Shown here piece by piece: positions 4,508 to 57,784 of a stretch of DNA of 64,000 nucleotides. The notes under the pieces were generated by a model. That model saw only the letters and a list, made by a program, of their open reading frames with translations, made no database searches and was not told the DNA's origin. Within the stretch, counting starts at the first letter, position 1; every line of letters starts with the position of its first letter. A program made the translations under genes and the position numbers. The DNA is from Chiloscyllium plagiosum (lineage: Eukaryota): NCBI RefSeq assembly GCF_004010195.1, contig NC_057718.1:51592373-51656372 (forward strand). Direction: 5' to 3'.

Positions 4508-4737
4508 CAGTAAAATGAGGAGAAAGTGAGGTCTGCAGATGCTGGAGATCAGAGCTGAAAATGTGTTGCTGGAAAAGCGCAGCAGGTCAGGCAGCATCCA
4601 GGGAACAGGAGAATCAACGTTTCGGGCATAAGCCTGAAGAAGGGCTTATGCCCGAAACGTCGATTCTCCTGTTCCCTGGATGTTGCCTGACCTGCTGCGC
4701 TTTTCCAGCAACACATTTTCAGATTCAGTAAAATGAG
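4508..4737. mobile_element. Fold-back Penelope-derived insertion with hammerhead core and 12-bp TSD
   Basis: Arms 4555-4634 and 4643-4722 are near-perfect reverse complements; TSD CAGTAAAATGAG at 4508-4519 and 4726-4737; core CTGAAGA-A-GGGC-TTAT-GCCC-GAAAC-GTC at 4634-4661 (+). Confidence 0.9.
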
Positions 4738-7184
4738 CCAACTATGCTCCCCAGGAGTCCATGTTTCTGAGACAGCACACACTTTTGTAAAGGTTTTATT
4801 ATTCTGGAACTTTGGATAGTCTTGTTAGGAGCACAATGTTTTCTATCACGTGGCTAACCAGAAATCTTTCCTATTCTTCCTACCTGCCATTGCAGTTTGT
4901 TGGAAGAACTTACAAGTTGATACCCAAACCTTTTGGTTATGGTACAAATGTACCTTCCTAAACAAGCAAGTCTGTGAATGGACGTTGAAACTGGAGACTC
5001 TTGAGGAATCCCCACAACTACTGTGAAACAAAATCTCCCTACCTGAAGATTTAAGAGCTTATACGACAAAATAAAACTGCTGCATGTCCAGAAAGTATAT
5101 GGAATAAGCCATAGTTGATTTTCTGCTAAATATGATGACCAAACATCTAGAACAAAGTTGTAGAGTACAGGTATTGTTGTTTTACTGAATTATAAAGATT
5201 GGTTTTAAAGGATTTTTCTTAGTTCTATGAGGTAGCGGGAAGGGGAGTCAGAACTGGAGCAGCTGTGATTGCTGTGGGACTGCCTATTGATAGTACTTGC
5301 ATAACTAAGTTTATGCTTACTTTATGCTACTTTATATTTAGTTGAAGCCTGCATGTTAGATTCTTTGAAGTTACTATATTTGCACTGTTTACCCCATTGT
5401 AGGGCATCTCCACAAAATTCAATATAAAAATAAGTTTAATGCATGCTCATCAGACAAAATGTATATATAAATGTTCCCGTATAATTAATTTGACACGTTT
5501 ACTTCATTACGAGCAACAGATATTACCTTCAATTAATCTACTAGATAATCAAGTAAAACTATTTCCAACAAACATCTCGTGAACAGATGAAGTGAGCTAA
5601 TTACTGCTCTGACTGTGGATCAGTACAATTCAGGGAACAAAAATCACTGATAAATCTCCATTTACTCTGGTGTAAGCCAAATGTGATTAGTTGCAGCTAT
5701 GACCTGTAAACATAGCATCACCAAGCAGACAACTGACAATGCTTTGGAATATGTTAAACAGAAATCATTAATGTATTATATATCTCATGGTTTGGCTGCA
5801 TGCTACAATTTTTTTGGCATTTCACTTTCATTTGGAAAGCCAATATTAATCATTGTCTTTGGGAAAACAGATGATATTCTTTTTATTTTGCAAATGTAGG
5901 TCTTGTCTTCAGCAAATTGATTTAAAATGCACCATATTTTGCATATGATTTAGCTTTTGGAATTATTTCCATCAGATTCTCTTCAATGTCCCATTGTCTG
6001 GATAAGAAATGCTTCATTGCCAGCATAATTGGAGGATTGATGAAATTGGTTGCACACACGACTTGCCTGTTCTCCAATGCAGCATTCCAGATTACTGACC
6101 CAGTGGAAAATGCATGTTTTTCTGAAGCAGCTTTTAAATGGCAAAACACTTCAGATGCTATAAATCTGAAATTTAAATAAAAACCTGAACATTTCTGATC
6201 CAATCAATCAGCAAATTTGGCATCCTGCTTTTGTGAGCGCTGTCCCTTAAGTATTCATTTGCTGAGAGCTCACTTTAGTTAGATTAGCAATTTAAACATC
6301 ATTAGACACATCATCTAGCTGCACATGCAGGTTGTACAGCAACTTTTAGTTAATGTCAGCTATGGGTTATTTTGCTTATAAACAAGAAATGGATATATGA
6401 AAATGGACACATGATGTGCCCTCCAACTTGTGTTTGAAACTGTCTTTGTCAACACTGATGGGTTCCAATGGAAGGCAATCCCAGTGCAAGAGTCAGATTA
6501 TGACTCAGATTTGCAGCTTCTTTATTTCTTTAAATGAAATTGCTTCCTCCTGTATTTTAACTAAGGTGTGAACCAATATATTTCATATAAGAATATTAAA
6601 TATGGATATAACATGAAATAAAAATCTTAAATGATCAAAGTGCAACCACATTTTGATAAAGCCTAAACTAATTTAATGCCAAATTCCACATACAGTAAAT
6701 TGAAATATTGCTCTGTGTTGTGTATACTGAACTAAGGATAAAATCTTAATTTAAATGGAAGTGTTCATCTGATGTTTCCATTGAATTACTGCTCTGTTCT
6801 GGTGAGAAAATGTAAACATAGAATCCAAATGATGTGCATTCAAACATTGACTCCATTCACTGGGCACCAGCACCCACTAGCTTATGGAGGAAGGGACAGA
6901 ATCTCTCTTTGCCACTTGCAGTGAAATCGTGCATTTTTTTTCTTTTTAAACATTATACACTACGACAAATAGTATATAGGCAAATGCAAGATAAGCCAAT
7001 TATGAATAGTTGCATTGTTTCCCAAACCTACACAGCACTTGAGACAGAGCAAGTCCTTCGCTTCATAGCAAAAATTGTTTCAACATTTTCCAGCAAATTT
7101 CGTATCAAATACCATCAGAGGGTTATGTTGTATACTTGTATTTAACATTTAACTCCAAATTATTTGTGAACCTGGTGAACATGT

Positions 7185-7762
7185 CCATTGCTTGGGACAT
7201 CATGTTGTGACTGTAAAAAACATTGGTGAGATCACTTTTAGAATACTGGAAGGATGTTGTGAAACTAGAAAGGGCATGGAAAAAATTATAAGGACATTGA
7301 AGAGACGGGTGATTTGAGTTATAAGGGGAGACTGGACAGACTGGGACATTTTTTGTCTGGAACACTGGAGGATAAGAGGTGATCTTATTGAGGTTTATAA
7401 AATCATGATGGGCACAGATGAGGTGAATAGCCAAGGTTTTTTTTTCCCCTGACTTTGGACAAGTCCAAAACTAGAGGGCAGAGATTTAAAATGAAAGGGG
7501 AAAGATTTAAAATGGACCTGAGGAGCAACGTTTCCACTTAGATGGTGGTGCACGTATGGAATGAGCTGCCAGAGGAAGAACTAGATATGGGTACAATTGC
7601 AATATTTAAAAGACAGTTGGACACGTACTTGAACAGGAAGAGTTTAGAGGGATATGGATCAAATGTAGATCAATGGGACTAGTTCAGTTTGGGATACCTG
7701 GCTGGCAAGGTCGAGTTGAAAAGGAGGTTCTGTTTCCATGCTGTGTGATTCAATGATTCTAT
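7185..7762 (+). mobile_element. CR1 LINE 3' fragment
   Basis: GAGGTGATCTTATTGAGGTTTATAAAATCATG (RGDLIEVYKIM), TGGAATGAGCTGCCAGAG and CR1 3' UTR ending TGATTCAATGATTCTATG. Confidence 0.85.
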
Positions 7763-8401
7763 GGCTCTGTGCACAATGGACTCTGATCTACTAATTGTAG
7801 GTAAAGAGAAGAATTTGAAGGAGCTATGTCTAAGTGCTAAAGTGACAGTTCTGTAGAGATGGGTCTCAATTATTTTCTGACCTCCAAATAGTTTTTGCAG
7901 AATGATGGTGGTAGTTGCTGAAATTTGGAAACCAATGTGTTTATAAAATATGCTACACACATGTACTTTTATAAGAGCAGTATATTTTTGAAAACAACCC
8001 TGTTAACTCCTATTTTATGAACAAGAAAATAACATACTACAAGCAAGCAGAGTTTTAAAAGTATTATTTTGCAAATTTCCTGTAACATTTAACTGAACTT
8101 TGCAAGCAAGTAATGAAAAGTTAAATATTAGCCACAATGTCAAAAACTCTACTTGATTATCAACAATGAGGATGAAAAGCATGCACAATGATATAGATTA
8201 AATGAGTATACTGCCATCTGATGGTCATTGTTAATATTTCAGTGTTAAACTTGGGTTCTTAAAATCTGTTGTGCATGAAGGAATAAGGAAAAGACAGCTG
8301 GCATGTCATGATATTTACCCTTTAGGATTAGCATTTGGTGCTCTGCTTTACCTCATTTGCACATATATTATTTACAACTGTTTTTCATTTTTTTGTCACT
8401 G

Positions 8402-8601
8402 AATAGTACATGGCTAGAGACAAAAAAATCTGCAGCTGCTGAAATCTAAAATAGACAGTCAGGAGGCTGGAAGAACACAGCAAGCCAAACTGAGTCCTGA
8501 AGAAGGGTTACACCCAAAATGTTGACTTCTTCACTTCTTGATGCTGCCTGGCCTGCTGTGTTCTTCCAGCCTCCTGCCTGTTTATACAAAATAGTACATG
8601 G
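8402..8601. mobile_element. Fold-back Penelope-derived insertion (different subfamily) with decayed hammerhead and 12-bp TSD
   Basis: CAGGAGGCTGGAAGAACACAGCA / TGCTGTGTTCTTCCAGCCTCCTG inverted arms; TSD AATAGTACATGG at 8402-8413 and 8590-8601; CTGAAGA-A-GGGT-TAC-ACCC-AAAATGTT from 8497. Confidence 0.8.
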
Positions 8602-11532: not shown

Positions 11533-12380
11533 CATAGAACATAGAACGTAGAACATAGAACAATACAGCGCAGTACAGCCCCTTCGACCCTTGATGTTGT
11601 GCTGACCTGTGGAACCAATCTGAAGCCCGTCTAACCTACACTATTCCATTCTCATCTGTATGCCTATCCAATGACTATTTAAATGCCCTTAAAGTTGACA
11701 AGTCTACGACCCTATTGCTCTTTGAGTAACGAAACTACCTCTGACATCTGACCTATATCTATCAACCCTCAATTTAAAGCTATGTCCCCTCGAGCTAGCC
11801 ATCACCATCCAAGGAAAAAGGCTGTCATTGTCCAACCTATCTAACCCTGTGATTATCTTATATGTCTCACGTCGCCTCTCAACCTTCTTCTCTCTAATGA
11901 AAACAGCCTCAAGTCCCTCAGCCTTTCCTCATAAGACCTTCCATCCATACCAGGCAATATCCTAGTAAATCTCCTCTGAACCCTTTCCAAAGCTTCCACA
12001 TCCTTCCGATAATGTGGTAACCAGAACTGTAAGCAATATTCCAAATGTGGTCGCATCAGAGTTTTGTACAGCGGCAGCATGATCGCATGGTTCTGAAACT
12101 GAACCCCTCTACCAATAAAACACACCATATGCCTTCATAACAACCTTATCAACCTGGGTGGCAACGTTTAAGGATCTGGACACTGAGATCTCTCTGCTCA
12201 TCTACACGATCAAGAATCTTACCATTAGTCCAGTACTCTGCATTCCTGTTACTCCTTCCAGAGTGAATCACCTCACACTTTTCCACATTAAACTCTATTT
12301 GCCACTCTCAGCCCAGCTATACAGCTTATCTATGTCTCTGTAACCTATAACATTCTTCATCATTATCCACAACTCTACCT
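11533..12380 (-). mobile_element. CR1 LINE 3' fragment with (TTCTATG)n tail
   Basis: ORF LYKTLMRPHLEYCLQFWLPHYRKDVEALERVQRRFTRILPGM; (ATAGAAC)n at 11535-11560. Confidence 0.92.
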
Positions 12381-18560: not shown

Positions 18561-19199
18561 TTTTAAACATTTTTCTGTACTGCACTCAGATAGGCCGGCT
18601 GATTTTGAATTTGAATAACAAATTGTCTTGGCAATAGCTTTCTTAACAGGAAATTATGCTATTAGCTCACCTGGTTATCACTACATTGAGTAGCATTGAT
18701 TTTTTAAAAAATTGTGCAGTAAACAATAATGAAGATGGTATTAAGGAGAAAAAAAAATCTACCACCTAGAGAATGTGAATGCTGTGTCAGTCAGAATTTG
18801 CCTGCATTGTGAAATGTGTATGTGGCAAACTTGGCAAACAATGAGATGATCAATGCCATGTAAATAATTAAAGTTTGATACACAGGAAACATAGAGTGGC
18901 TGGTGTCATTATTCATAAGCCTTTGAGGAATACTTCCAGCTGTGGTTCTATGGCTGATTAGAAAAATATCAACCAGTTCACAGACAGTTCTAAGTGAGGA
19001 ACTGCTGTAAGTGACAATTGACCAATCCAGCACAAACTGGAAACTCACTGTGAAAGGTCATATTTCAGGGATGTTCCAATGAGTGCAAGTAGGGGTTCTC
19101 ACTGCTGATAGTGATGACTACTTTGTGGACAACAGTCTCAATCCTTTCAGAAAGGAAACTTCATTAACCAAGCAATGTAAGTAAAATTAAAGATATATC

Positions 19200-19780
19200 C
19201 TACTCGCAGAGCACTTCAGAGAACATCTCCGGGATACTCACACCAATCAACCCCATTATCCCGTGGCTGAACACTTTAATTCCCCCTCCCACTCTGCCGA
19301 GGACATGCAGGTCCTGGGCCTCTTCCATCGCCACTCCCTTACCACCCAACACCTTAAGGAAGAATGCCTTATCTTCCACCTCAGGACCCTTCAATCCCAT
19401 GGCATCAATGTAGATTTCACCACTTTCCTCATTTCCCCTCCCCCAACCTTACCCCAGTTCCAACTTTCCAGCTCAGCACCGTCCGCATGACCCATTCCAT
19501 CTGTCCATCTTCCTTACCACCTATCCGTTCCACCTTCCCCTCCGACCTATCACCTTTAACCCCACCACCATTCACCTATTGCGCTCTCAACTACCTTTCC
19601 CCAGCTCCACCCCCTCCCATTTATCTCTCCACCCCTGAGGCTCCAAGCCTCATTCCCGATGAAGGATTTTGCCCGAAATGTCAATTTTTCTGCTCCTTGG
19701 ATGCTGCCTGACCTGCTGTGCTTTTCCAGCAACACACTCTTGACTCTAATCTCCAGCATCACAGTACTCACTTTCGCCTT
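19200..19780 (+). mobile_element. Penelope-like element 3' part: GIY-YIG endonuclease C-terminus, C-rich 3' UTR, decayed hammerhead
   Basis: EHFREHLRDT..PVAEHFNSPSHSAEDMQVLGL..KEECLIFHLRTLQSHGINVDF; CCGATGAAGGATTTTGCCCGAAATGTC at about 19656-19682. Confidence 0.88.
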
Positions 19781-20454
19781 TTGATTAATTATACCTGCTT
19801 AGGTGTCTCTTAAAAGGTACTTAATTGAGATCTTAAGAATTTCAAATCTTTCATACTGCCCCTGAAAGTAGGTATCCTTTTTCGGGATAAAGACAAAGAT
19901 ATAGGCTTATCCTCCAAACATTCGTCTGAAGTACTTATTCATACTTATTAAATCTTTAAATGTTTTTCTTTATTTGTGAATTTTCAGGTTAACTCGAAAT
20001 ATCATAATTTGTTCATCAATACTAATTGCTTTTGTAAAGGTAATGGTGAGCCACTCTTTCAAATCCATGCACAGTGAATGGTGGAGGCAGGGAGTTCTAA
20101 AATTTTGACAACTTCAGTGAAGGAGCAGGAATACAGATTTAGAATATACAATTCTGTTGTTTCTTTTTGCTGGCACTCATGCAATGTCATGTTGATGTGA
20201 AAAGAGATTGTAAATTGATCTTAAAATTATGTTTATTTGCTTCATTTTAAAATGGACTTCAGTGGATTAAAATGGCTGCTGTAGATCACATGATTCACAA
20301 GTTATCTACAGTTCCAGAATTTTCCTGTGGACCAAGTTAAAATTTCGCACCTATAAATGCATGAACACTGTAAGTGTCACAAAACAATGACGGCACAAAC
20401 TTTTTGTCTCCAAACTTGAATTGATAACAAAGGAGACATATCAAAAGTAATAAA

Positions 20455-21630
20455 ATAAACAAAAAAAGCTGCAAATGCTGGAAATTGACGAAACAAAATC
20501 GGAAATTTCTGGAAAAACTCAACAGGTCTTGCAGTAACTGTCGAGAGAAAGCAGAGTTAATATTTTGGCAAATAATCCTATGGCAGTGAATGTTGGTGGG
20601 ATGGTAGGTGAAGACCAGTGGGACTGCTGTGGGAGGGAAGAGAGAAGTTGAGTACTGAAGTGCAGGAGATGGGTCAGACACGGCTGAGGGCCCTGTCAAC
20701 AATGGTGCTGGGGAGTCCTCGGTTGAGGAAGAAGGTGGGCATTTCAAAGGCCCCTTTGTTGAAGTTGGCATCATCAGAACCCAATACAATGGAGACAGAG
20801 GAACGGAGAGTTTGGAACAGAGTCTTTACAGGAAGTAGAATATGAGGTAACTGTGGGAGTCGGCAAGCTTGTAATGAATATCAGTGGCCCCAGAAATGGA
20901 AATAGACATGTCGAAGAAGGGAAGGGAGGAGTTGGAGTTTGACCAGGGGAAGATGAGAGCAGAGTAGAAATTGAAAGCAAAATTGATAATTTTTTTCCCA
21001 ATTCTGGATGAGAGAGGGAAGCAGCACCAATAATGTCATCAATGTACCAGAGGAAGAGTTGTGGGTGGGGGCTGGAGTAGGATTGAAACAAGGAGTGTTC
21101 CACAAACAGACATGCGGATACCATGGCCACTTTGACCTGAAGAAAATGAGAGTCGTTAAAGGAGAAGTCATTCAAAGTGAGGACAAGCTCATCCTGGTAG
21201 AGAAGAGTTGGGAGATAATGTTTTGGGAGATAGTGAGCTTCCACTGCAGGAGTCGGTAGAGAAGGGTGATGCAGGATGGAGATGACTCAAGCCTTTCTTG
21301 CAGGAAGAAGCAGAATTCACAGAGATCCCAAAGGGTGAATGGACGTGTAAAGATTTTGCATGTCCATGGTGAGGAGGAGGCAGCTCGAGCCCATAAACTG
21401 GAAAATTTGAAAATGACATAAAGATTCAGAAGAATTTCAGATGTAAGTGGGAAGGAACTGGACAAGGAGAGAGAAAATCGAGTCAAGGTAGGAAGAAATA
21501 AGCTCTGTGGAACAGGCAGAAACAATGAGTCTGTCTTAGTAGGCTTGTTTGTGGATTCTGGGAAAGGAGTAGAAGCGGGTTCTGTGGGATTGGGGGACTA
21601 TGAGCTTGGAGGCTGTGTGGGGATCACCAG
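20455..21630 (-). mobile_element. Penelope-like element reverse transcriptase fragment plus 3'-end piece
   Basis: ORF ELVLTLNDFSFNDSHFLQVKVAM..SACLFVEHSLFQSYSSPHPQLFLWYIDDIIGAAS (YIDD); VPLVFTYHP; internal deletions and frameshifts; pLTR-type piece at 20455-20562. Confidence 0.85.
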
Positions 21631-38300: not shown

Positions 38301-38599
38301 AGGCAGTGAAAATGCCAAGGAGAACAAAATAAAATCAAACCCTGTCTACAAAACCGATCCATTATTTTCTGTCACCTAATGTTTAAATAGTTTCAGTGAC
38401 TTGATTTTAGCTGAAAAGTATTCAGTGAGCCGAGGCATTCCTGTGGGAAAATATCAGCACTCTCAAGATTAAACGTAACAGGATAATATGGAAAAATAAA
38501 ACAACGTTGCAAAAGATATTGAAATAATAAGAAATATGCTGGATTCTTTATAGAATGATGGTGATTGATTTTGCTCTCGAGGGAGAGAATGAGGGATAC

Positions 38600-38773
38600 C
38601 TTCACAGTCCCGCTCAATCTGGCCATTGCAGTACAAAGCATCAGAAATTAGGTCTGGTAGTCTTCCATTCAGGTCCACTGAAGCCAAACAGCCTTGAAAT
38701 CCCTCCCTCGACGCCACCAGCTTCGGTAAGGTTTTGTACATGTCTTTGGCAATTCCTCCAATATACAAGTCTC
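38600..38773 (-). CDS. NRXN1: Alpha-neurexin exon D, 174 nt; end of LNS5
   Basis: [65 protein letters not shown](F/Y)CNGQIER is NRXN1-type. Acceptor TTTTTTCTAATCCATAG|GA, donor GAAG|GTATCC; phase 1-1. Confidence 0.96.
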
Positions 38774-39659
38774 CTATGGATTAGAAAAAATATAAACTGA
38801 ATTAACACAGTCTTAAAACTTATTGATTTAATGTGTTCACCACACTCTGGAAATGAGAAAAGAATCTACATAGAGTAAAAGGAAGCTTTGATTTTGTGAT
38901 TACACAAAATAAATTTTAATGAAAACTTGAAGCATTCTGATCAATGCAATTTCAAGCATAGTTTGGTCACAATTTTCTGATTGCATCCAAAAATGAAAAA
39001 TCTACCCATAAAAAAAATCAGGCTTAATATAACTTTGACTGTTATTCTAGAATCTCCCATTTCACACAGATTTCACAATGTTTTCAACACTTTTAGTTTT
39101 TAATTGTACTATAAACAATGTTATCTACTTTCATTTTGCTTTCAGTCATTGTACTATACTTTCATAATTAATGTTATAAAGGAGGTTAAGGCAAGAGCAA
39201 GAATTCATTCACTTTATAAGGACTACTTCCCACAATGGAAATCCTTTGTGGTTTACACACTGAGTGACATTTAATGAACATGATAAAACAGTACTTTCCA
39301 GTCACTCAACAGCAGTCACTTCAAACTTCAGCATGTTACTTGCTTGTGATTATTATATGACTCATTGTACTTCAATAATCCAGAATGACACTACACTTCC
39401 ACATTGTCTTATTCAATTGTTGTCTAGTTCCAGCAATCTACACAAATGTTCTTGCCAAATGTTCATCACTTTTGACATTAAGTACTTCCAGCACTTGACT
39501 TCGTCAAGCTGCTTATTTAAAACAATGACAATAATAGTAAACTCTGAATTAATTAGTGGAGTCTGGTATGAGCAATGCACAGGGACAATCCTGTTATCTC
39601 AACTTTCCACAGATTTTTAATAAGATGCTAATATTTACAGCAGATAGTGAGAGGTGAGC

Positions 39660-40589: not shown

Positions 40590-40819
40590 CCTTATAAAAT
40601 TTGAGCTGAAAATGTGCTGCTGGAAAAGCGCAGCAGGTCAGGCAGCATCCAAGGAGCAGGAGAATCGAGGTTTCGGGCATGAGCCCTTCTTCAGGATTCC
40701 GAAACATCGATTCTCCTGCTCCTTGGATGCTGCCTGACCTGCTGCGCTTTTCCAGCAACACATTTTCAGCTCTGATCTCCAGCATCTGCAGTCCTCACTT
40801 TCTCCTTATAAAATTTGAG
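40590..40819. mobile_element. Fold-back Penelope-derived insertion with minus-strand hammerhead and 16-bp TSD
   Basis: TSD CCTTATAAAATTTGAG at 40590-40605 and 40804-40819; arms about 40603-40675 and 40699-40772 are reverse complements; minus strand GAATC-CTGAAGA-A-GGGC-TCAT-GCCC-GAAAC-CTC-GATTC (40699-40662). Confidence 0.9.
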
Positions 40820-40877
40820 TCAAAAAATAAGCTGGAGAAAAAAGAAACTCCGAAGGCTGAAAAAAAAAAGGAAGATT

Positions 40878-41050
40878 TCATAGAACATAGAACGTTACAG
40901 CATAGTACAGGCCCTTCAGCCCTTGATGTTGCGCCGACCTGTGAAATTAATCTAATGCCCATCTGACCTACAACGTTCCATTATTATCCATATGTATGTC
41001 CAAAGCCCATTTAAATGCCCTTAATGTCAGCAAGTCTACCACTGTTGCAC
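40878..41050 (-). mobile_element. CR1 LINE 3' tail
   Basis: CATAGAACATAGAAC..CAGGCCCTTCAGCCCTTGATGTTGCGCCGACC; same family as 11533. Confidence 0.8.
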
Positions 41051-42574: not shown

Positions 42575-42830
42575 AGATTCATATGCCATGGAAACAGACC
42601 CTTTGGTCCAACCACTGCACAGTGGCTGTGTTGCCAGACTAAACTAAGTCACACCTGCCTGCATTTGGCCCATATCCCTCCAAACCTTTCCCATTCATGA
42701 ACTTACCCAAATGTCTTTTAAACATTGTAACTATACCCATAAACTACTCTCTATGTAAAAATGTTGCACCTCATGTCCTTCTTAAATCTTTCTCCTCTCA
42801 CTTTACACTGCCTAGTTTTGAACTTCCTCA
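42575..42830 (-). mobile_element. CR1 LINE 3' tail
   Basis: GGAAACAGACCCTTTGGTCCAAC..CCATATCCCTCCAAACCTTTCC; same family as 553. Confidence 0.75.
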
Positions 42831-43310: not shown

Positions 43311-43614
43311 CATAGCTCAATTGTCATCCTCATGGGCAAAGCAAGAACACCCATCAGTCAAATCTAGCCTATGATATAAAACACCAGTGCAGGTTAAAAT
43401 AATTTTTTGGACATTCTACCTGAATTTGAAAACACAAAATAGCCAGAGCAAATCCTGTGAGGCAGTGATTGGTCTGAAGAGATCTGATAAGTCCAAGACT
43501 CAGTACAGGGTAAGAATATTAGAAGATAATTCTTAAGGAGTACCCCATCATTCTGTTTGTTTTGAAAAGATGCAGAAATTCTGCTGTATTGGAGAATAGG
43601 TCACAGTCCCTTAC

Positions 43615-43805
43615 CTTTCAGATCGAGATTTCTGGCTCCGACTGTGTTTTGCGTGATGAGTTTGGAGTTAATCTTCACAGTGTGCAAGTTGTTCATGTCC
43701 CGCGAAATCAGCACATTGTGCCATTTATTGTCATTCAGTGGTTTGTCAGAGTTCCCTTTAATGAGGGAAGGGCCAGTACCTAAATCGAATACATAGTGTA
43801 AGTAC
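43615..43805 (-). CDS. NRXN1: Alpha-neurexin exon C, 191 nt; LNS5
   Basis: [74 protein letters not shown] and GARNLDLK are NRXN1-type. Acceptor TTCTTCCCTCCACAG|G, donor AAAG|GTAAGG; phase 2-1. Confidence 0.96.
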
Positions 43806-44360
43806 CTGTGGAGGGAAGAAATAAGGAAGTCAGTTATTATCAAAGATGCTGGGGTAGAATCATGTTGGTTTACTTTACAATAAAAATCTCCAAAAGAAGT
43901 TTGGTTTGTTGGGGGTTTTGGGTGGGGGGGGGGAAAAGAGGGCAGAACAGGAAAGTTTTTAATCAGACAGGAGAGCAGTGGACGAAGGTATTGCCAGCTT
44001 CTCATCTCCACCCTGATTAATTCTGGAGAAGAGAGGCTCTTGGGTGACCTTCCATCCCCACTGTCAAATAAGGCCCTGAAGTAGGTAATTATTACCCACT
44101 TAAAGGCCTCATATACCCTTACTGCTGATATTCACCAGCAGCAGATGGAGTATTTGCCATGTGGGAAACCTTAAAACCTTAAAACTTCCAGTGTGCCCAC
44201 TTACTCAAAGGTGCTATGTTCCTAACCTAGCAATGGAAAGGAAGTGTCTGCTAAGAGGCAGCTCCTCCCCTTCTGGTCGACCCAAGTCCCTTGCAAACTC
44301 CACCCCAACATTATTTACGTGTTCCCTGGATCCTTCAAGGATTCTAAGCCTCAGGTGGAC

Positions 44361-44586
44361 ACACTGCTAGTAGCAGGAGAAAGTGAGGACGCAGATGCTG
44401 GAGATCATAGTCGAAAAGTGTGGTGCTGGAAAAACACAGCCGGTCAGGCAGAATCCGAGGAGCAGGAGAGTCGACGTTTTGAGCATAACCTCTTCATTAG
44501 GTTATGCTCGACTCTCCTGCTCCTCAGATGCTGCCTGGCCGGCTGTGCCTTTCCAGCACCACGTTTTTCGACACTGCTAGTAGCAG
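44361..44586. mobile_element. Fold-back Penelope-derived insertion with decayed hammerhead and 16-bp TSD
   Basis: TSD ACACTGCTAGTAGCAG at 44361-44376 and 44571-44586; inverted arms; minus strand CTAATGA-A-GAGG-TTAT-GCTC-AAAAC-GTC. Confidence 0.88.
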
Positions 44587-45087
44587 TCACCTGTCTTGCT
44601 GGCACTGTTGGCCTCTGATTGTTTGCCAGCTCTCAGGAGTTAGGATCTCCATCTGCTGGATCTCAGGGGAGGACTGCAGCTTCCCAGAGAAATGCCAAGT
44701 TGGACATTAACTCAGTGGGCTTGTCAACAGGGAGATGCAGAGTTCTTCCTGGCTCTTCATCCAGTGGGAGATACCTTCGTCAATCCAATTAAATACCACT
44801 CATTCTGTCCTCCAGTTCATGCATCTTAAATGCAAAATGATTCGTACCACAGTGTAATTCTCAGCTACCTAATTATGCAAGAATCTATACATAGGTCAGT
44901 TGTTTTCCTACACACTTCCAGCAGATAAAGTTCTGGATATAGATGCAAATTTTGCTAAATATTAGTATTGGGAAACATAATTATGATGAAAACTATATTG
45001 ACAATAATGTATGCAAACATAACTCCCAAACGTAATTTCAGATTTTGCACATATGCTGTACTTGAAATGTAATCAGTCCAACCATAC

Positions 45088-45469
45088 CCTTTAACAAGTT
45101 CAATCACAATGAAATCATTGCCATCTCCACTGTTGAACAGTATCAGTCCATCAGCTGATGTTGTCTTGAATTGGAAGAACAGATGCATGGAGGTGTAGGC
45201 TTGCAATGTGGACAGTGCTACATAGCTGGATTTTGTCTTGAAGGTCACAGGATCAGCAATAATATTTTTTAAACCAAATCTAGCATTGAGCTCACAGTAG
45301 TCAATATCACCATTTTTGCACAAGTCAATGTAAGGCATGCCATTGAACATAAGACTCTGTAAATGGCCAATGAAATTTGAAGGGATGTTTGACATGTATC
45401 GTCTCTCCGTCACTATGCCTGTTTCAATGTTGTGGAATTCTAGACGAGTATGATCTCCTGTCATTTGAT
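45088..45469 (-). CDS. NRXN1: Alpha-neurexin exon B, 382 nt; end of LNS4 and start of LNS5
   Basis: [24 protein letters not shown]...[18 protein letters not shown]...[15 protein letters not shown]...[15 protein letters not shown]. Acceptor TTTCCTGTTTCAG|AT, donor AAAGG|GTATGG; phase 1-2, in frame with neighbouring exons. Confidence 0.97.
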
Positions 45470-46909
45470 CTGAAACAGGAAAGAAACAATAGGATATATA
45501 AAAACCACTTCATATTCAAAAGTACACAGGAACAAATGCAATACATGTTCATGAAGAAGCTTACCACTATTTATTGTCTAAATTCCATTTAACTCACCTC
45601 ATTCTAAATACCTGCACCCATTAATTATAAAACAATTTGTTTTAAGTTACATTGGACAATGTTCAATAATTTTCCCAAAAGGACTCCAGTCCTTTACTAG
45701 ATTTAACAATGATAATACAAGATTTTTTCCATAACATGCACTTATTAATTATTTGTTGCTGCAAATTGTTATGCTATCCAGCAGATGGCGGCATTTACAC
45801 ACTAATGATTTTGACCAAATGAACAAACCCTTTCTATCATCAGACAGAAGAAGAAAACAATTTATAATCTATCATAATGAAATACATAGGCACAAGCATT
45901 CACCAGCACCTAATGTTTACAAAAACGTTACTATCAGCAGAGAGGAATAACAAAATATCTCACTGTTACTGCATTTTGCTTATTACTTATATCTTGCAGT
46001 ATTTTTTTTGTAAAACCTCTATTTCATTCCATCAAAGTGATAAATATTTTCAATAAATGAAAAGTAAACTAAGTACATATTTTCATTCATCAGCAATCAT
46101 TCTATTAGGAATAAAGAAAATACATTGGTTAAAGGAATTAACTTTTTTACAGGAACATGATAACAAACTGAAGGTGGTTCAAACATTATCTTTAAAAAGT
46201 GCATAAATCAGATGTCACAATCATAAAATATATCTTCGCACAGGCTAGAATCTTGAAATGTCTTTTTTTGTAATGCATGTCTCAGTTTCATATTGACAAA
46301 TACTGAGATTGCTTTAATGAAATGTATTTTGAGAACTAAGTATTTAAATTGTGCTAAATTGCACTCCAATACTTCAGAGAGTGGCAGAGGTACTGCAATG
46401 TCAATCGAGATCAAAATTATAAGGTTAGTGCTTGAGAACACACTAACTGTGGGGCTAATTGATCTCACAACTGTCAAAATGTGTTACAGCAGAAGTGAGA
46501 AAGACAGGGCGATATCAGTCCCTGGATTCTGGGTAAATGCTGACACTTTAGTGAGCAATAAAAATCAATTTAACCTTGTGGTACCTTCTGGAGCTTTTGT
46601 AATTGAGCAGTGACTGTAAGTATTTTCACTCAGACTTCTTCTATCCTTGAATAGTAACTCAAAACCATGAATATATCCATGACAGGTACTAATGTTTCTT
46701 TAACTAAATTCATCCTGAGTGTGAGGCTTGTTTATTTTTGAGTAATAATTTTATATCTCTGGGGCTCAGTTAGCTCAGTTGGCTGAGGGACTAGACTGTT
46801 GTGCAGAATAAAGTTATGTATGGGCTATGGTAGTTGATAGAGGTCTGCTCTCACTGCTCGCCCCACACTTGTGGAATAGATCCCCTCAAGTTATATATAT
46901 CATGAAATG

Positions 46910-47181
46910 ATTAGATTAGATTACTTACATTGTTGAAACAGGCCCTTTCTGCCCCACAAGTCCACAACGACCCTCTGAAGAGTAACCCACCCAGACCCAT
47001 TCCCCTACATTTACCCCTTCATCTAACACTATGGGCGATTTAGCACAGCCAATTCACCTAACCTGTACATTTTTGGACTGTGGGAGGAAACCAGAGCACC
47101 CAGAGGAAACCCACGCAGACACGGGAAGAATGTGCAAACTTCACACAGACAGTTGCCTGAGTGCTAACCACTGTGCCACCA
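46910..47181 (-). mobile_element. HE1-type V-SINE with internal deletion in the head
   Basis: V-domain (ORF LDCGRKPEHPEETHADTGRMCKLH) and (AATCT)n tail. Confidence 0.88.
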
Positions 47182-49724: not shown

Positions 49725-50040
49725 TACTAGGATGTTGCCTGAGTTACAGAGTTTTAGTTATTAAGACAGAATGGACAGACTGGGTTTGTTTACCTTGAAG
49801 CAGAGGAGACTCAGGGAGGAACATGATTGAGATGTATGAAATCATGCGAGACATGAATAAAGTAGACAGGAAGGAACTTTTCTTGTTGGTAGAGGTATAA
49901 ATGATCAGGGGCATAGACTTAAACTAGGGGCAGGAGGTTTAGAGGAAACATGTGGAAAAATATTTCACTGATGGTGGAAATCCAAAATTAACTGTGGGTA
50001 GGAGAGGCAGAAACCCTGATAATTTTGAAGAAATTGCTAG
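49725..50040 (+). mobile_element. CR1 LINE 3' fragment
   Basis: TTTACTAGGATGTTGCCTGAG (FTRMLP), GAACATGATTGAGATGTATGAAATCATG. Confidence 0.7.
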
Positions 50041-51357
50041 AGGTAAAAAGAGATCATACAGGAGCTCTGGAGAGTATCCATCTTGCTTGGCACTTGGAAA
50101 TTTGCAACCAATTCATTTAATTTTTGTAAATTTAGTTGGCTACACAACGCCTCTCGCACACCTTTGAGGGACCATCAGCCTATCCTCTGTTGACCCTTCA
50201 CCCTGTACATTGAGGGCAACATTGACCCCTTCAGGTCAATACAACAGCTGTGCTTCTCTCCTTCTCATTTGCCCGCTCCTTTTTACTGAGGTTTGGTCTC
50301 CTGTATGTAAAAATACTTCTATCCCACTTCTGGAATACCTCACAGAATGAAGTACTAACGAGACAACAACTATGAAGAGAAAGTAGCTGCAGGTTTCAAG
50401 TATCCTATACTCACACTAACAAGAAAAAACAGATTTTCAGCTAAACTTCCATTCAGAAGTGCTGAAGTCGACCAGCTGGCTAAACTGCTGAAGTGTGCCA
50501 TTGCTTCCAGCAGCTGCTTTTCAATCTGCCCTGACAAGGAAAGTGATTACAAGTAAAGTACCCAGCCAGGCTCCATCACACCCAGAGACCACATTGTAGC
50601 TGACTGCATATTTCTTTGCAGAAGATTGGCATCTTAATGAGCTGAAAAACTCCACTATTTTCAACATTTTGAGAGTGAGTTCCTGATTTCCTGGGCTGCT
50701 TGTCTGCTGTAATCCAGCCTTCCCATGTGACATTGCCAGGAATTCCCAGGTCGAGAAAATGTCCTCCAGAAGCTTCCTGAATGAGCAGCCAGACCACCAG
50801 AGTTGTGAATCTGTCAATCCGCATATCACATTGTAAATCAAATAACGCAGAAGATAAGTCACACTCTGTTCTTAAAGCACAAGATGTCATATTTGAATAA
50901 GTGTTCACTATCAGATTGGAAAGTTCAGAGGCATTTAATCAGACAGAGAAAGTTTATCTGTGTGTGTGTATGAGAATGGCTGAGTGAATAGTGAGTGGGA
51001 AGGATGTGAGAGGGAAGAGGATTGTTTTAGTCAGTAAGATGTTAAAAGCAAGTGAAGTAGGATAGAAGTGGTTGAGTGTGAGGGTTGCAGCTGGCTGTGG
51101 TAGCAGGCAGATGATCTGGGTAGTCAGGCCAGGAGGGATTATCAGGTTGGGGTGAGAGTCAGAGAGTTGAGGAACTGAATGGTGTTGATGAGTCAGCCAT
51201 AGTCGAGAGGTGGGTCAGGTCACATCTGCTTGGGAAGTCAGCACTGATGGGGTGTCAGGTGATCAGAGAGGGGCATTGTGGTTCTATAGTTACTGAGGAT
51301 TAAATTATGATTTTTCCATTGAACATTCCCAGGTTAACTGTTCAACTTTGTCAAAAA

Positions 51358-51520
51358 AAGAGAAAAAACTGTGGATGTTGAACATCTGAAACAAAAACAG
51401 AAATTGCTGGAGAAACTCAGCAGCATCAAACTGAAGGGTCACTGGACCCACAATGTTAACTCTGCTTTCTCTCCACAGATGCTGCCAGACTTGCTGCATT
51501 TCTCCAGCAATTTTGTTATT
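51358..51520. mobile_element. Older fold-back Penelope-derived insertion
   Basis: AAATTGCTGGAGAAACTCAGCA / TGCTGCATTTCTCCAGCAATTT inverted arms with decayed CTGAAGGGTCACTGGACCCACAATGTT between. Confidence 0.7.
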
Positions 51521-52124
51521 GATGGAGGAGAGTAAGTCAGAGCAGTTCACGATCCTCGACTCTAACTCAAAGCCAAAGGTACCTTCATAGGGGCTGTGGG
51601 GCAGAGCAGTTGCTGTTGGAATTTCCCCTCGAAATTCCCATGAAGTCAGTTCATTGGGACTTCCATGGATGTCTGGTGCCCATCTTGGATCAGATGTCTG
51701 GTCCAAAACTGGAAGATCTGGATTAGTTGTTTTAAGTTATTTTTAAAAGTAATAAAAGCATAGGAAGCTTTAGCGATGATATGTATGATGTAATGGCCAG
51801 TGAAATCAAAGCACCAGTCCACATGCTTTAAATTGTATTCATTAGAAATCAATGACTTGAACTCCCTGGATATTCAATACCTCAGAATTAAGCTGCTTGT
51901 CGGAAATTAACAGAAGAAATTTGCACAATGAAGAGGCAATTACATGAGAGTTACTAGTGAGTTTTTTTTGCATAACAATTTGAATAATCACTTGTATAAA
52001 TCCAATTGAAAACGTGTGCAACGAGCTAGAACTGCATGGAAATTGCAAATACAGCCATTAAAAAGACAATCCTGTCTGAACACCTCAGAATGAGACTGAG
52101 ATACAAAATGATATGGAAGAATAA

Positions 52125-52290
52125 AACAAAATTAACGATGGATGCTAAAGATCTGTAAGAAAAGCAGAAATTGCTGGAGGAACTCAGCAGGTCTGGCACC
52201 ATATGTGCAAAGAAAACAGGATTAATATCTTGACTCCAGAAGAAAGGTCACTGGACTCAAAACGTTAACACTGCTTTTTCCACACTGATG
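52125..52290. mobile_element. Older fold-back Penelope-derived insertion
   Basis: Antisense arm GAAATTGCTGGAGGAACTCAGCAGGTCTGGC, then decayed core CCAGAAGAAAGGTCACTGGACTCAAAACGTT and a short sense arm. Confidence 0.65.
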
Positions 52291-52354
52291 AAATGGAGGA
52301 TGAAGTGTTTGTGGTCTTCATTTAACTTTCGGATTACTTCATTGCTTAGTGAAA

Positions 52355-52635
52355 GGTGGCTCAGTTGTTAGCATTGCTGCCTCACGGTCCCAGGTTCGAT
52401 TCTGGCCTTGGGTGACTGTCTGTGTGGAGTTTGCACATTCTCCCTGTGTCTGCGTGGGTTTCCTCCGGGTGCTCCAGTTTCCTCCCACAATCCAAAGATG
52501 TGCAGGTTAGGTGAATTGGCCATGCTAAATTATCCATAGTGTTAGGTGGGTCTGGGTGGGTTACTCTTCGGAGGGTCAGTGTGGACTTGTTGGGCCGAAG
52601 GGCCTGCTTCCACACTGTAGGGAATCTAATCTAAC
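52355..52635 (+). mobile_element. HE1-type V-SINE
   Basis: GGTGGCTCAGTTGTTAGCATTGCTGCCTCAC head, V-domain, AATCTAATCT tail. Confidence 0.9.
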
Positions 52636-53794
52636 CTTATTTGCGCCATCTTTTCATCAGACTTTTGAAGAATTACGAGTGTAAACCAACAATTATTTAT
52701 CTTTTAATGCAGTAAACACTTTTGAAATTATATAACTGTTTATTTATGTTATATTAATGCGTATAAGTTGGTTGTGGCCTGGCACTGAGATTTTGCTTCA
52801 CTGTAACAATCTGGAATATCGGAGCTGAAAGAAATACCCTGACAGAAGACATGTGCATAAGTGGGTTTGAGGATGCAAAACAGGATGGTCAATTTAGTCA
52901 AGAAACAGCCTTGCCAATACTAGCAAGGTGTACAAACCAAAATAAATTGTACAGGAGAGTTGTCCTCAAACAGAGATAATAGACATTTTTGTGCTTGGAA
53001 CAGTAATCATGCCTCCATTAACCGTAGCTCTTGTGATTGATTACAATGTTAGAGATAATGAAGCATAGACAAACAGCCTGCATTTGTTAAAATGTGGTTT
53101 AGGGAAGCAAATAGAGGCTTCAGGATAGTAGTCATCTGGCAGAGGTGCTGGACAGGACATGACGGAATTAGCAAAACACAATTCAATGGACAAAGCCAAT
53201 TGTGACTTTAAACGACACAGGGCAATATCAAGAAATGGTAGAAAAGAAGTCAGTCTTTGCAGCTGCGGTAAGTTGGGTGATCTGGCCAGTGACTTTGAAG
53301 CCGCATAAGTAAAGCCCCAACAATGGAAACAAAGTCCAACATGCAGGGCTGCTCAGCAACTGGCATCTTCACAATACACTATTGTTTGTAGGTTTAATAA
53401 TATCTATCATCTATAATGAAACAATATCCAAGTTGCTGTGGATTGTTAATAGCCAGAGGAAAGGCTTTAGATAAGTTGATAGTCATATATAGGTGTAATA
53501 AAACAAAGCGATCAGGTACAGTAATAGCACATGGCTGAAGTGTTCAAATCTCAGTCTTCCTGAAGGGAACTGATAATCAAGAGACACAGATTCCTCAGTG
53601 CCTGTGCCAGTCAGTTGTCTGGGAGTATCCCTCATGTCACCTTCTGATAGGTTTTAATCCATGTCATCCCAGTCAACCCTAGGAATGCACAGCAGTGTTG
53701 AACAATTCTTCAGGCAAGGCAAAGTAAATGTTGGACATTCTAACTTTTCTACTTTGCTTAACATGAGATACATTGTCCTCTATTTTTTACAAAA

Positions 53795-54125
53795 TTCACT
53801 CATAGCATAAGGGCATCTCTTGCTAGAACAGTATTTATTGCCCATCCAAGAGGGCAGTTAAGATTCAACCACATTGCGGTGGGTCTGGAGTCACATGTAG
53901 ACCAGACCAAGGAAAGATGGCGGTTTCCTTCCCAAAAGGACATTAGGGGAACCAGATAGGTTTTTCCAACAATCAACAATGGATTCATGGTCATCATTAG
54001 ACTCTTAACTCCAGATTTTTATTCAATTCAAATCCCATCATCTGCCACCGACCAAGCTCCCCACAACATTACCTGGGTGTCTGGATTAATAGCCTAACAA
54101 TCATACCACTAGGCCATCACCTCCC
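53795..54125 (-). mobile_element. Dispersed retroposon copy (LINE-tail/SINE-like), left arm of a local inverted pair
   Basis: 53795-54012 is the near-exact reverse complement of 55582-55799; its tail is shared with 26300, 55140-55218 and 57955-58030. Confidence 0.75.
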
Positions 54126-54239
54126 CAGTGTAACACCAGAATGAATCTGCAAGGGGATCTTATGGCAGTTAAGAGGTTGAGAACAGGGACAAAAAGGCCT
54201 AACTATGTTCCTTGGCTTTGACCAGTGTACTATAACATC

Positions 54240-54322
54240 CAGAATCGAGTGTGGTGCTGGAAAAGCACAGCAGATCAGGCAGCATCCAAGGAGCAGGAGA
54301 ATCGACATTTTGGGCAAAAGCC
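54240..54322 (-). mobile_element. Penelope-like 3'-end fragment truncated within hammerhead helix II
   Basis: Minus strand GGCTTTTGCCCAAAATGTCGATTCTCCTGCTCCTTGGATGCTGCC. Confidence 0.75.
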
Positions 54323-54429
54323 TACAACAACATCCACAGCAAACAAACTGTTGCTTGGCATCATGGGGATCGCAACACTTGAATATCGGCCGATTTCTCA
54401 AGATCCAGGAGCTCACCACTAATTAAATA

Positions 54430-54892: not shown

Positions 54893-55581
54893 TTGCTCTG
54901 TGGTTATTAAAAAAAAACTAGTCAGGAATAGGGCAATCAAGACAATTTCTTAATTTCAGGGCTGGGGTGACAAGCTATCCACAGTGCAGCAGCTACAGTG
55001 AACACTTCTTGGTGAGAAGCCTTCCTGCAGGTGGGTTAATCCACTTAAGGGCCTCAACTGGCTGCAGGGTGGGAAGGTCAACCACAGATTTTCCTACCAG
55101 TGCTTAATCCTAATGGAGCTGGGGTGGCAGCAGCAATGTGGTTGACGCTTAACTGCCCTCTGGAATGGACAATAAATGCTGTTGTAGCCAGAGATGCCCT
55201 CATCCTGTGAATGAATACCAAATTCACTATTTCAGTGCCATTTCACTTTCAACATGGAGGAGCAAGACGTTCAGCCTTATATGTGTGTTTGCTAATGGCA
55301 TTTAAAAGGAATATAACACGCTCCTAATTGAAAAGGATGTCAGATTAATAGTCCATTAAAAGTAATGGACTCCCATATCTGCTGTAATAAAGAGTAACTG
55401 TTGACTTTATTCACTTTCCAGGAACTTAGAAAAATGTGAAATAAGAAGTCATAAACTATACCCATTGAAGTACAGTATACGTTTAAATGTTCTTTACATT
55501 ATCATATTATGATTTACTTAAAATATAAAATTTATGCAACAGCACCCACAAAGAAAGCCTTGAACAGTTTGTGCCTGCTTA

Positions 55582-55799
55582 GGAATTAAGAGTCTAATGA
55601 TGACCATGAATCCATTGTTGATTGTTGGAAAAACCTATCTGGTTCCTCTAATGTCCTTTTGGGAAGGAAACTGTCATTTTTCCTTGGTCTGGTCTACATG
55701 TGAGTCCAGACCCACCGCAATGTGGTTGAATCTTAACTGCCCTCTGTGATTGGCAATAAATGCTCTTCTAGCAAGAGATGCCCTTATGCTATGAATGAA
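55582..55799 (+). mobile_element. Dispersed retroposon copy, right arm of the local inverted pair
   Basis: Reverse complement of 53795-54012. Confidence 0.75.
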
Positions 55800-55800
55800 C

Positions 55801-56050
55801 AGGCAACTGACTGTGTGGAGTTTGCACATTCTCCCCGTGTCTGCATGGGTTTCCTCCGGGTGCTCTGGTTTCCTCCCACAGTCCAAAAATGTGCAGGTTA
55901 GGTGAATTGACGATGCTAAATTGCCTGTAGTGTTAGGGGCAAAGGTGAATGCAGGGGAATGGGTGGGTTGCACTTCGGCGGGTCGGTGTGGACTTGTTGG
56001 GCCGAAGGGCATGTTTCCACACTGTAAGTAATCTAATCTAATCTAATCTA
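55801..56050 (+). mobile_element. 5'-truncated HE1-type V-SINE
   Basis: V-domain and (AATCT)4 tail; tRNA head missing. Confidence 0.88.
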
Positions 56051-56814
56051 AAGATATCACGTTACACAACTACTCATCTTACATTAAAACAACTCTCTTC
56101 AGAATGAAGAGAATAAATAATTATTTTTTAAACATTCAAGCCATCTCTAATACCTCTTTTGAATTAGATATAACAGTTTGCAAACTGTTAAGACTTTGGT
56201 AGCATGAAGCAACATTAATTTTAAAGTGTTTTAGAACTTTATTTCGAAATATTAATTGTAAGTATTTACCACAACACTTTATTTTACCTACACAGGCACA
56301 TGGAGAGTAATAATACTTCTAAGTGTTTGCTCCCAGCAGGAGTTAAAATAATTTCCTGTTGTGGTATTTTGAGTGATTACTAATTAACATGTTTTTAGAC
56401 GTGCCTTGGTTTGGAGCAAAATATAAAAGCAAATTTTCTCTCTTGCCTTCAGAGCTAAAGGTTATACATAGTGGAGCAAATAACTTTAATGAATTATATG
56501 CACTGTGATTTGCCCCTAAAGGGTTGAATCAATTAATAGCATTTTGATTTTGCCATATCAATAAGGTAATTTCTCATCATAGAAACAGCATCTAAAGGAG
56601 TAAATAGTTGGCACATTGGTGAAAGATCAATTGAACCAAGGTGAATTTGGCAATGAATCAACCACAAATTATTGGTTGCTTAGAAACAGCATGATATCTT
56701 GCAGAGTTTCTAAGTCTAACAAAACATTTTAAGAAAAAGACCAACAATTCGTATGTGTTATGAGAAATATTGGAGTCCATCTGAGGGTTACAAATCAACC
56801 AGAAATGTTATTAC

Positions 56815-56937
56815 CTTCAATAGGCTGTAGTTCATCCACTATTAGCTTCAGGGATTTTCCTCGACGACTTACACGAACAGTGTGCCACTCATTGTCATTG
56901 AGATTTTGTCCAGCAAAAAGCATTTCTGGACCCTTGC
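56815..56937 (-). CDS. NRXN1: Alpha-neurexin (NRXN1-like) internal coding exon A, 123 nt; LNS4 segment immediately after alternative splice site 3
   Basis: Translates (G/S)[40 protein letters not shown], matching neurexin [31 protein letters not shown]. Acceptor TTCTTACGCAG|GC at 56938/56937, donor GAAG|GTAATA at 56815/56814; phase 1-1. Confidence 0.95.
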
Positions 56938-57595
56938 CTGCGTAAGAATATGGCAATGGATGATTAGGTTGTGAATTCAATTCTAAACTTATTACATTTC
57001 CTTAGACTTGAACCCCAGTGAATGATAAACAGTACTTGAGAAAGGAAAGCAATATTAAAATCCATAACAAAACTATGCTTTACATCATTATTCTAGGTCA
57101 AGTCAAGAAAAAGAAACATATTATGAAATCATGCATATCAATGCACACTTAAAATACCAGTACAATTGTCTGTCACGAATAGGCACAAGTGTCTCCTTCA
57201 TTACAGGAAATCCGTTTTTTAGCACTCAACTTATTATTTCCTTGGCAATTGTTTAATTGAATTTGGAACAATTTCATGCTTTGGGTATAACAATGTCCAA
57301 CAATCATGAAGCATACACATTGCTGAACTATCCTTTCCAACTGTGCAACAGAATCCTGTTAAATTTTATTTACCTTCTACCAATCTACTCTCGTTTTCCA
57401 TTCAAGTACAAAATGCAAGGACAGTGTAATGAGTTTCATGCATTATCCTATCAATTTCCATCTACTTCAGACATCTGTCTTCCTTGCCTCCATTGTATTA
57501 TTGCTGACAAAGCTATCAACTCTCTTGAAGTATCTTCCTTGATCCCTTTTCCCTTGCCAAATCTTTCCCTACTTTCAATGATCTTCGCAGAAACT

Positions 57596-57784
57596 ACCCT
57601 TTTAACAGAAATAAAATAAAAGACTGTGGATGCTGGAAATCTGAAACAAAACATAAGCTGCTGTCGAAGCTCAGCAGGTCTGGCAGCATCGGTGGAGAGA
57701 AAGCAAAGTTAACATTTCTCCCCACAGATGCTGCCTAAGTTGTTGAGTTTCTCCAACAATTTCTGTTTTTGTCACCCTTTTGAC
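57596..57784. mobile_element. Older fold-back Penelope-derived insertion with 11-bp imperfect TSD
   Basis: CTCAGCAGGTCTGGCAGCATCGGTGGAGAGAAA / TTTCTCCCCACAGATGCTGCCTAAGTTGTTGAG arms; ACCCTTTTAAC 57596-57606 versus ACCCTTTTGAC 57774-57784. Confidence 0.7.

Follow-up and report, generated by a model that had tools for sequence, protein, structure and literature searches.

Head-to-head copies of a Penelope-like terminal module form hairpins in neurexin introns of Chiloscyllium plagiosum

What makes short hairpins recur along a vertebrate gene, each with a different centre? The stretch examined here (the window) comprises 64,000 nucleotides of Chiloscyllium plagiosum (contig NC_057718.1, positions 51,592,373 to 51,656,372); it is intronic and belongs to a minus-strand neurexin gene, with 45090-45461 matching Neurexin-1-alpha (E 6e-85). 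Each of its seven fold-backs joins two copies, head to head, of a Penelope-like element (PLE) terminal module, namely a pseudo-long terminal repeat (pLTR) with a minimal hammerhead ribozyme. Judged by their sequences, the hairpins appear to have been built anew at each insertion and not copied from one master. Probably, though well short of certainty, each is one dead-on-arrival PLE insertion made in a single event, with priming at two nicks and run-off at the RNA 5' end. All counts given here refer to this 64-kb window and its seven fold-back events.

Module copies were sought with two profiles made from copies in the window, for which a reversed-sequence control reached about 10 bits; weak matches no better than that control (26504-26555, 6142-6224, 63384-63476 and 49727-49749) were dropped before counting. 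The searches returned 22 module copies, 14 of them arms in seven head-to-head pairs and eight of them single, and mapped PLE-derived sequence amounts to about 4.0 kb in all, or 6.3% of the window. Positions within the module are counted from the first base of the hammerhead core. On this scale outer ends fall at two positions only, site A near +126 and site B near +90, about 36 nt apart in both of the families that the copies form. Target site duplications (TSDs) were scored against 600 random spans. The fold-backs, with the inner ends of their arms given as arm A / arm B, are as follows.

4508-4737: fold-back 1; TSD 4508-4519 / 4726-4737; arm A 4520-4634, tail-bearing (sense minus); arm B 4633-4724 (sense plus), core at 4634; 2-nt junction overlap; inner ends +10 / -1.
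8402-8601: fold-back 2; TSD 8402-8413 / 8590-8601; arm A about 8414-8489 (minus), whose end lies downstream of the core by about 55 nt; arm B about 8492-8589 (plus), whole hammerhead, core at 8497; 3-4 nt of filler; inner ends about +55 / -5 to -8.
40590-40819: fold-back 3, element on the minus strand relative to the other fold-backs; TSD 40590-40605 / 40804-40819; arm B 40603-40700 (sense minus), core at 40694, type I minimal hammerhead fold; arm A 40699-40806 (sense plus); inner ends +19 / -4 to -6.
44361-44586: fold-back 4; TSD 44361-44376 / 44571-44586; arm A 44377-44501 (minus), up to a decayed core; arm B 44499-44572 (plus), with an 8-nt deletion; nested arms, 3-nt overlap; inner ends -1 to -5 / +8.
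51355-51521: fold-back 5 (51358), family 2, decayed, without TSD; arm A about 51355-51430 (minus); arm B about 51431-51521 (plus), hammerhead core to site B; inner ends about +46 / about -1.
52108-52297: fold-back 6 (52125), partial, family 2; TSD-like 10-mer with 1 mismatch, not clearly beyond chance; arm A 52121-52239 (minus); arm B 52236-52290 (plus), shortened; inner ends about +15 / -1.
57596-57784: fold-back 7, family 2; TSD 57596-57606 / 57774-57784 with 1 mismatch; arm A 57607-57717 (minus); arm B 57714-57775 (plus); nested, 4-nt overlap, turn downstream of the core; inner ends +21 / +38.

All seven lie within neurexin introns and measure about 170-205 nt between TSDs. The first-pass annotation had listed all seven as recurring instances of one architecture; six are clear, and 52125 is only partial. 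An inverted-repeat scan picked up four of the seven sites directly, with arms of 80 nt at 98% complementarity (4555-4722), 74 nt at 97% (40603-40772), 65 nt at 89% (44410-44572) and 52 nt at 81% (8451-8585), while BLAST, self-alignments and profile searches show 51358 and 57596 as decayed yet clear fold-backs. In the partial fold-back at 52125, the short arm ends after about 55 nt and the self-alignment score is near background (50, against 46 for a stretch that is not a fold-back); the family profile matches its two halves in opposite orientations (E 1e-28 and 6e-8), a match that shows orientation and is no independent test, as both halves were among the profile seeds. The density first estimated, about one fold-back per 9 kb, is right for this window (7 in 64 kb).

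The hairpins had been attributed to Penelope, and this holds, as the module follows remnants of GIY-YIG endonuclease and of reverse transcriptase (RT) in the window. Two of the eight single copies carry these remnants:

1-146, plus: single copy, family 1, cut by the window edge; ends at site A.
19191-19781, plus: single 5'-truncated PLE copy with the C-terminal part of a GIY-YIG endonuclease (19203-19427), a pyrimidine-rich 3' region and the hammerhead; ends at site A.
20453-21650, minus: broken PLE RT remnant (RT 21649-21008 and 20784-20680); ends at site A.
23928-24054, minus: short single copy that begins 5 nt upstream of the core and runs to site A.
26728-26802, plus: single decayed copy, family 2; ends near site B.
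34924-35370, minus: single copy extending upstream of the hammerhead by at least about 270 nt; terminus at site A.
54232-54336, minus: single short copy ending at site B; TSD-like 10-nt repeat with 1 mismatch (15/600 random spans).
59018-59113, plus: single short copy, family 2, hammerhead core to site B.

The copy at 19191-19781 holds both the end of a GIY-YIG domain and a family 1 module, and thus ties family 1 to a PLE open reading frame (ORF). Directly upstream of that module, 19203-19421 matches residues 738-810 of P0095, a protein with RVT_1 and GIY-YIG domains (47%, E 6e-13), and the endonuclease frame has 395 relatives at E<=0.001. For family 2, the terminal module at 20453-20569 is directly joined to the RT remnant, and upstream of it 21622-21008 matches the RT of P0095 (E 1e-21). 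The source of the fold-backs thus appears to be an endonuclease-bearing (EN+) PLE. None of the copies in the window is full-length (pLTR-ORF-pLTR). Pfam gave no match in any of five decayed window fragments, the GIY-YIG fragment included, and identity was obtained via relatives. Three of these (P0003, P0024 and P0095) carry a cysteine linker, CX2-5CxxC, between RT and endonuclease, and the window remnants stop short of it. Such a linker is given for the Neptune and Nematis clades in the relevant account of PLEs (PMC8557442), so that the relatives suggest a Neptune- or Nematis-type placement. Two observations concern the reading frame. In 20453-21650 (minus) the RT joins the module at about +19 of the hammerhead and the endonuclease part is missing, through a template jump or a deletion, again within the ribozyme. 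In several copies, among them 23725-24042 (minus) and 40610-40966 (plus), a short frame begins with an ATG near module position +47 and passes through the tail; by analogy with other PLEs, in which pLTR and tail are described as encoding the first ORF residues, this is possibly the start of the PLE ORF. Self-alignment of 26500-26830 gave no fold-back, and the 34924 copy has a possible 10-nt TSD with 1 mismatch (wide search, without null).

The module starts with a minimal type I hammerhead of the kind described by Cervera and De la Pena (PMC4209133), as motif and fold indicate; self-cleavage is predicted. A motif scan of the window gave five matches in elements and one unrelated match. In the fold of the 40590 arm, helices I and II surround an unpaired core, with a z-score of only -1.0. 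In 11 copies taken together, 86% of helix II is paired, and two of its pairs have both partners changed, a covariation that was reached by 7/500 shuffles and lies above all slid controls; pairing counts for helix I are blurred, some alignment rows taking in the other arm. The cores of several copies have decayed. In the window, Rfam gave no hammerhead match at E<=1, and the call rests on motif and fold; on the fold-backs Rfam returned sub-threshold microRNA matches only, which we attribute to hairpin shape. Pattern scans for further copies found none in metagenome contigs, none in prokaryote genomes, and in viral contigs a single match that was taken as chance.

Do the two arms of a hairpin belong to one event? 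Over the shared core, partner arms of the four family 1 fold-backs are 96.6, 98.3, 88.1 (one tie) and 93.5% identical, and in 4/4 no other sequence is closer than the partner. Between fold-backs, arm identity over that core is 60-95%, and the second family (51358, 52125 and 57596) aligns apart from family 1, in line with the distinct subfamilies that the first-pass annotation had noticed. The loop junctions, which it had called different, do differ in 7/7, including those of the closest relatives, 4508 and 40590 (93-95% alike). Overlaps of 2-4 nt occur at five junctions (no null was run for these) and short filler at two. Partner arms being closest and all centres being different argue against two separate insertions and against a master hairpin, and uphold the earlier proposal that hairpins are repeatedly made at insertion rather than by copying.

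The TSDs bear on the same question. Those at 4508 (12 nt exact, or 15 nt with 1 mismatch), 8402 (12 nt exact), 40590 and 44361 (16 nt each) are strong, each equalled by only 1-2 of 600 random spans. That at 57596 (11 nt, 1 mismatch) is moderate, with 4/600 spans equal, the 10-nt candidate with 1 mismatch at 52125 is doubtful (15/600), and 51358 has none, 318/600 spans scoring as high. A looser search agrees with these calls. Five TSDs of 11-16 bp had been reported; four are strong and one moderate, and 2-3 nt of the 16-mers may belong to the element ends; lengths range over about 8-16 nt across the fold-backs. That two independent short insertions, the second into the first (PLEs may cleave their own pLTR), gave these structures, or that gene conversion evened out their arms, is very improbable: a single TSD brackets both arms in five of seven, the junctions show no internal duplication, partner arms have subfamily-specific bases in common and the orientation is always head-to-head. 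Still, short single copies are abundant, 51358 and 52125 are without convincing TSD, and cleavage of a pLTR-junction target has been reported in the in vitro work on an anole PLE (PMC11167929). An assembly artefact was rejected, since the arms differ at 2-25% of sites and carry TSDs.

The outer ends are more regular than the centres. Site A terminates all seven long arms, and site B six of seven short arms, with the remaining one truncated; of the single copies, five stop at A and three at B. A and B are thus paired in all six assessable fold-backs, for which P = 0.011-0.016 if arms chose independently, and neither A+A nor B+B pairs occur among the profile hits of the window. PLE tails are described as extensions of 30-40 nt that an insertion bears at one end (PMC3846280, PMC8557442), and in the anole PLE the tail lies between two RT start sites in vitro (PMC11167929). 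The A-B distance of about 36 nt matches this tail, and the long and short arms are accordingly inverted pLTRs with and without it; the arm asymmetry pointed out earlier is real, and is not new but the published PLE tail. Within the module, the tail of the copies at window position 4, 34933 and 40699 is predicted to pair with an 8-nt stretch at about +46 to +53. This pairing would close a long stem holding site B, with folding z-scores of only -0.5 to -1.0, and the modelled stem is a candidate RT recognition structure.

Could the hairpins be a mobile family in their own right? MITE families (miniature inverted-repeat transposable elements) have a fixed TSD length. We consider it quite improbable that a non-autonomous family resembling MITEs or short interspersed elements (SINEs) was copied here from a few masters by PLE proteins or by a DNA transposase. 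Similar size, high density, constant A and B termini and the presence of TSDs speak for such a family, but there are seven different junctions in seven copies, TSDs vary from about 8 to 16 nt, and single-arm copies with the same ends are equally common (8 vs 7). Moreover, the ends are not matched terminal inverted repeats (TIRs) because the tail is unpaired, and each assessable copy has about 36 nt without a pairing partner at one end. Compared with MITEs as defined in PMC8969392, the hairpins are likewise short, non-coding, TSD-flanked and numerous, but they have no common interior and are of retroelement origin. A MITE family was rejected on the unmatched TIRs, the 7/7 differing junctions and the range of TSD lengths, and the label "MITE-like" in the first-pass annotation captures a resemblance in shape only.

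Where, then, do the arms turn? Among single copies, inner ends lie at -5 (23934), about +4 (59018), about +10 (54250) and about +22 (26728), the copies at 34935 and 19655 extend about 270 and 470 nt upstream of the core, and 20453 switches into RT sequence at about +19. In total, 18/22 inner ends lie at or downstream of -8, eight of them at -8 to +4 with the core kept intact, and none of the 22 falls between about -10 and about -250. In six of seven fold-backs the further-reaching arm, which is arm B in five of seven, ends within a zone of 7-8 nt at the 5' edge of the hammerhead, a clustering with P<=5e-4 in simulations under four uniform and four geometric truncation nulls. Uniformly distributed breakpoints were looked for in the window and not seen; the ends cluster at the hammerhead. 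The turn had been placed at or near this ribozyme, which stands, but the pivot is its 5' edge, about 30 nt upstream of the cleavage site. No inner end (0/22) lies at the predicted cleavage site (after +28), and ribozyme cleavage therefore does not set the turn. The proposal that hammerhead self-cleavage defines the template end and the turn has accordingly been rejected and retains next to no credibility, even though all fold-back inner ends lie within about 60 nt around the ribozyme. In the anole PLE, too, ribozyme mutants left insertion unchanged and no reads ended at the cut site (PMC11167929), and a stop at the ribozyme 5' edge agrees with cleavage being dispensable in vitro in that work. 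A boundary at this edge fits an RNA start, a splice junction or a stall; in Drosophila virilis an intron end is reported to map to helix I (PMC4209133).

Favouring two-nick priming, we picture the following. The GIY-YIG endonuclease would cut the target with a stagger of 8-16 nt, as the TSDs suggest, and both target 3' ends would prime reverse transcription, one at site A and the other at site B about 36 nt upstream, as the copy ends suggest. The cDNAs would stop at a boundary 1-8 nt upstream of the hammerhead core, which may most simply be the RNA 5' end when initiation is on the 5' pLTR, and their 3' ends would be joined via the 2-4 nt microhomologies or short filler seen at the junctions. 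The product would be a head-to-head inverted repeat, tailed on one side and with a centre that varies from event to event. The anole PLE cleaved and extended both strands in vitro, its enzyme is a predicted dimer, and unprocessed RNA is given as its main substrate (PMC11167929). In five fold-backs (4508, 8402, 40590, 51358 and 52125) arm A has the tail missing from B and arm B has 10-60 nt of ribozyme missing from A. Across the fold-backs, about 35-80 nt of template is covered by both arms. Since each arm in those five holds sequence missing from the other, a single cDNA folded back cannot give both, and two cDNAs can. Two mechanisms had been offered at the outset, of which priming at both nicks fits 7/7, whereas plain target-primed fold-back fails in 5/7 without later deletion.

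A fuller form of fold-back, snap-back, seems rather unlikely to us. Here one cDNA reaching the RNA 5' end would fold back into a near-perfect palindrome, with endonuclease resolution at B, and later asymmetric deletions at the unstable centre would take away part of one arm. It yields A+B pairing and identical arms without extra assumptions; the nested arms of 44361 and 57596, with overlaps of 3-4 nt, are as expected from it; a quasi-palindrome of the module spans the hammerhead core and is used at 4508 and 44361; and small deletions between short repeats lie near the centres of 44361 and 51358. Palindromes can undergo centre deletion. However, snap-back requires a second event in 5/7, always a loss from arm A, including in the two youngest copies (arms 97-98% alike), and the single copies that end at B (54250, 59018 and 26728) suggest that B is a primary start site and not a hairpin cut. 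The published ideas of self-priming (PMC3846280) and of "EN-mediated resolution" of the tail (PMC8557442) lie close to it.

Several points weigh against two-nick priming. The evidence is one window with seven events, of which two (44361 and 57596) are nested and fit snap-back equally well, and two are without a TSD beyond chance. The 7-nt zone was picked after seeing the data, and inner ends of family 2 were read by eye, the automated values for family 1 being -1, -4, -5 and -8. Chance alone yields microhomologies of 2 nt, and filler occurs at two junctions. The TSDs, at 66% AT against 61% for the window, are hardly enriched, unlike the AT preference reported for other PLEs. Finally, the anole PLE used both start sites on both strands, and strict A+B pairing is not predicted from that result (PMC11167929).

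More tentatively, two-nick priming could take a form in which a single PLE particle uses one RNA for priming at both nicks, at A and at B, with the B-primed enzyme leading and the A-primed enzyme following and displacing the first cDNA. At the hammerhead's front edge the leading enzyme would run off the RNA 5' end, and the A-primed one would usually stop sooner. If true, A+B pairing would be obligatory, the further reach of arm B in 5/7 would be explained, and one step would cover the PLE tail, the inverted pLTR and second-end joining.

How new is such a structure? The EN+ PLE insertion unit has been described as a pLTR, an inverted 5'-truncated pLTR, an optional tail of 30-40 nt and a TSD of 8-10 bp (Arkhipova et al. 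2013, PMC3846280; Craig et al. 2021, PMC8557442), and the former reports, for units enclosing full ORFs, an inverted junction with palindromes and a 15-bp overlap. The hairpins resemble this unit in their head-to-head inverted pLTRs, one-ended tail, short junction overlap or palindrome and variable TSD; they differ in being stumps of about 55-125 nt with no ORF between, at seven per 64 kb and with TSDs of up to 16 bp. As an element kind they are therefore not new, but a miniature variant of a described PLE insertion architecture. Less ordinary are the strict A+B pairing, the two-sided arm asymmetry (5/7) and the stop at the hammerhead 5' edge (6/7).

With PAc, the anole Poseidon element (Frangieh et al. 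2024, PMC11167929), the source appears to share two RT starts bracketing the tail downstream of the hammerhead, unused ribozyme cleavage and extension of both target strands. With the CX2-5CxxC linker in its nearest proteins, however, the source probably belongs to another clade than PAc, and the main text of that study, which goes no further than first-strand initiation, presents neither inverted products nor A+B pairing. The minimal hammerheads described for metazoan PLEs (Cervera and De la Pena 2014, PMC4209133) are alike in having the core motif, an additional base ahead of helix II and a palindromic helix III, and in occurring as scattered solo copies. In Schistosoma, dual motifs 100-700 bp apart on opposite strands are reported there, but TSD-bounded hairpins and their junctions are not described in its results and discussion.

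Two further features invite a cautious comparison with L1: one TSD surrounds both segments (5/7), and five junctions have overlaps of 2-4 nt that may be microhomology, the other two having filler. In L1 twin priming, a process said to go back to Ostertag and Kazazian in 2001, both nicks reportedly prime cDNA, the 3' ends are joined by microhomology within one TSD, and the outcome is said to be an inversion without inverted repeat, from a variable internal priming site. Here, by contrast, the arms have template sequence in common, and neither start site varies.

A literature search of partial coverage, without Repbase or Dfam entries, found no work devoted to ORF-less vertebrate PLE hairpins. 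Such hairpins are the simplest complete PLE products, in which counts of ends and centres can tell two-nick priming from snap-back, and their fixed arm asymmetry hints at how the second end of PLE insertions is made. One fossil per 9 kb genome-wide, if true, would be a very large readout of the mechanism. They are also prone to misannotation as MITEs or microRNA precursors, and they place many stems of about 80 bp in introns.

Around the fold-backs, neurexin exons lie on the minus strand at 44955-45509, where the match to neurexin was computed, and putatively at 38469-38780 and 43601-44131. The fold-backs at 40590 and 44361 sit in the short introns between them, an exon being about 230 nt away from 44361. 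As for the PLE stump at 54250, a single copy, it sits between two 218-nt arms (53795-54012 and 55582-55799) that are 94% complementary and 1569 nt apart, with an older third copy at about 55133-55216; these look like facing ends of another retroelement family, or an inverted duplication. Old repeats with RT-like frames, about 70% alike, occupy 544-1457, 7248-7760, 11774-12375, 27061-27969, 30037-31059 and 42579-42828, and we take them to be remnants of CR1/L2-type long interspersed elements. A repeat family of 250-300 nt, with at least six copies (2500-2777, 28795-29112, 33969-34254, 46909-47161, 52355-52640 and 55800-56058), is presumably a tRNA-derived SINE.

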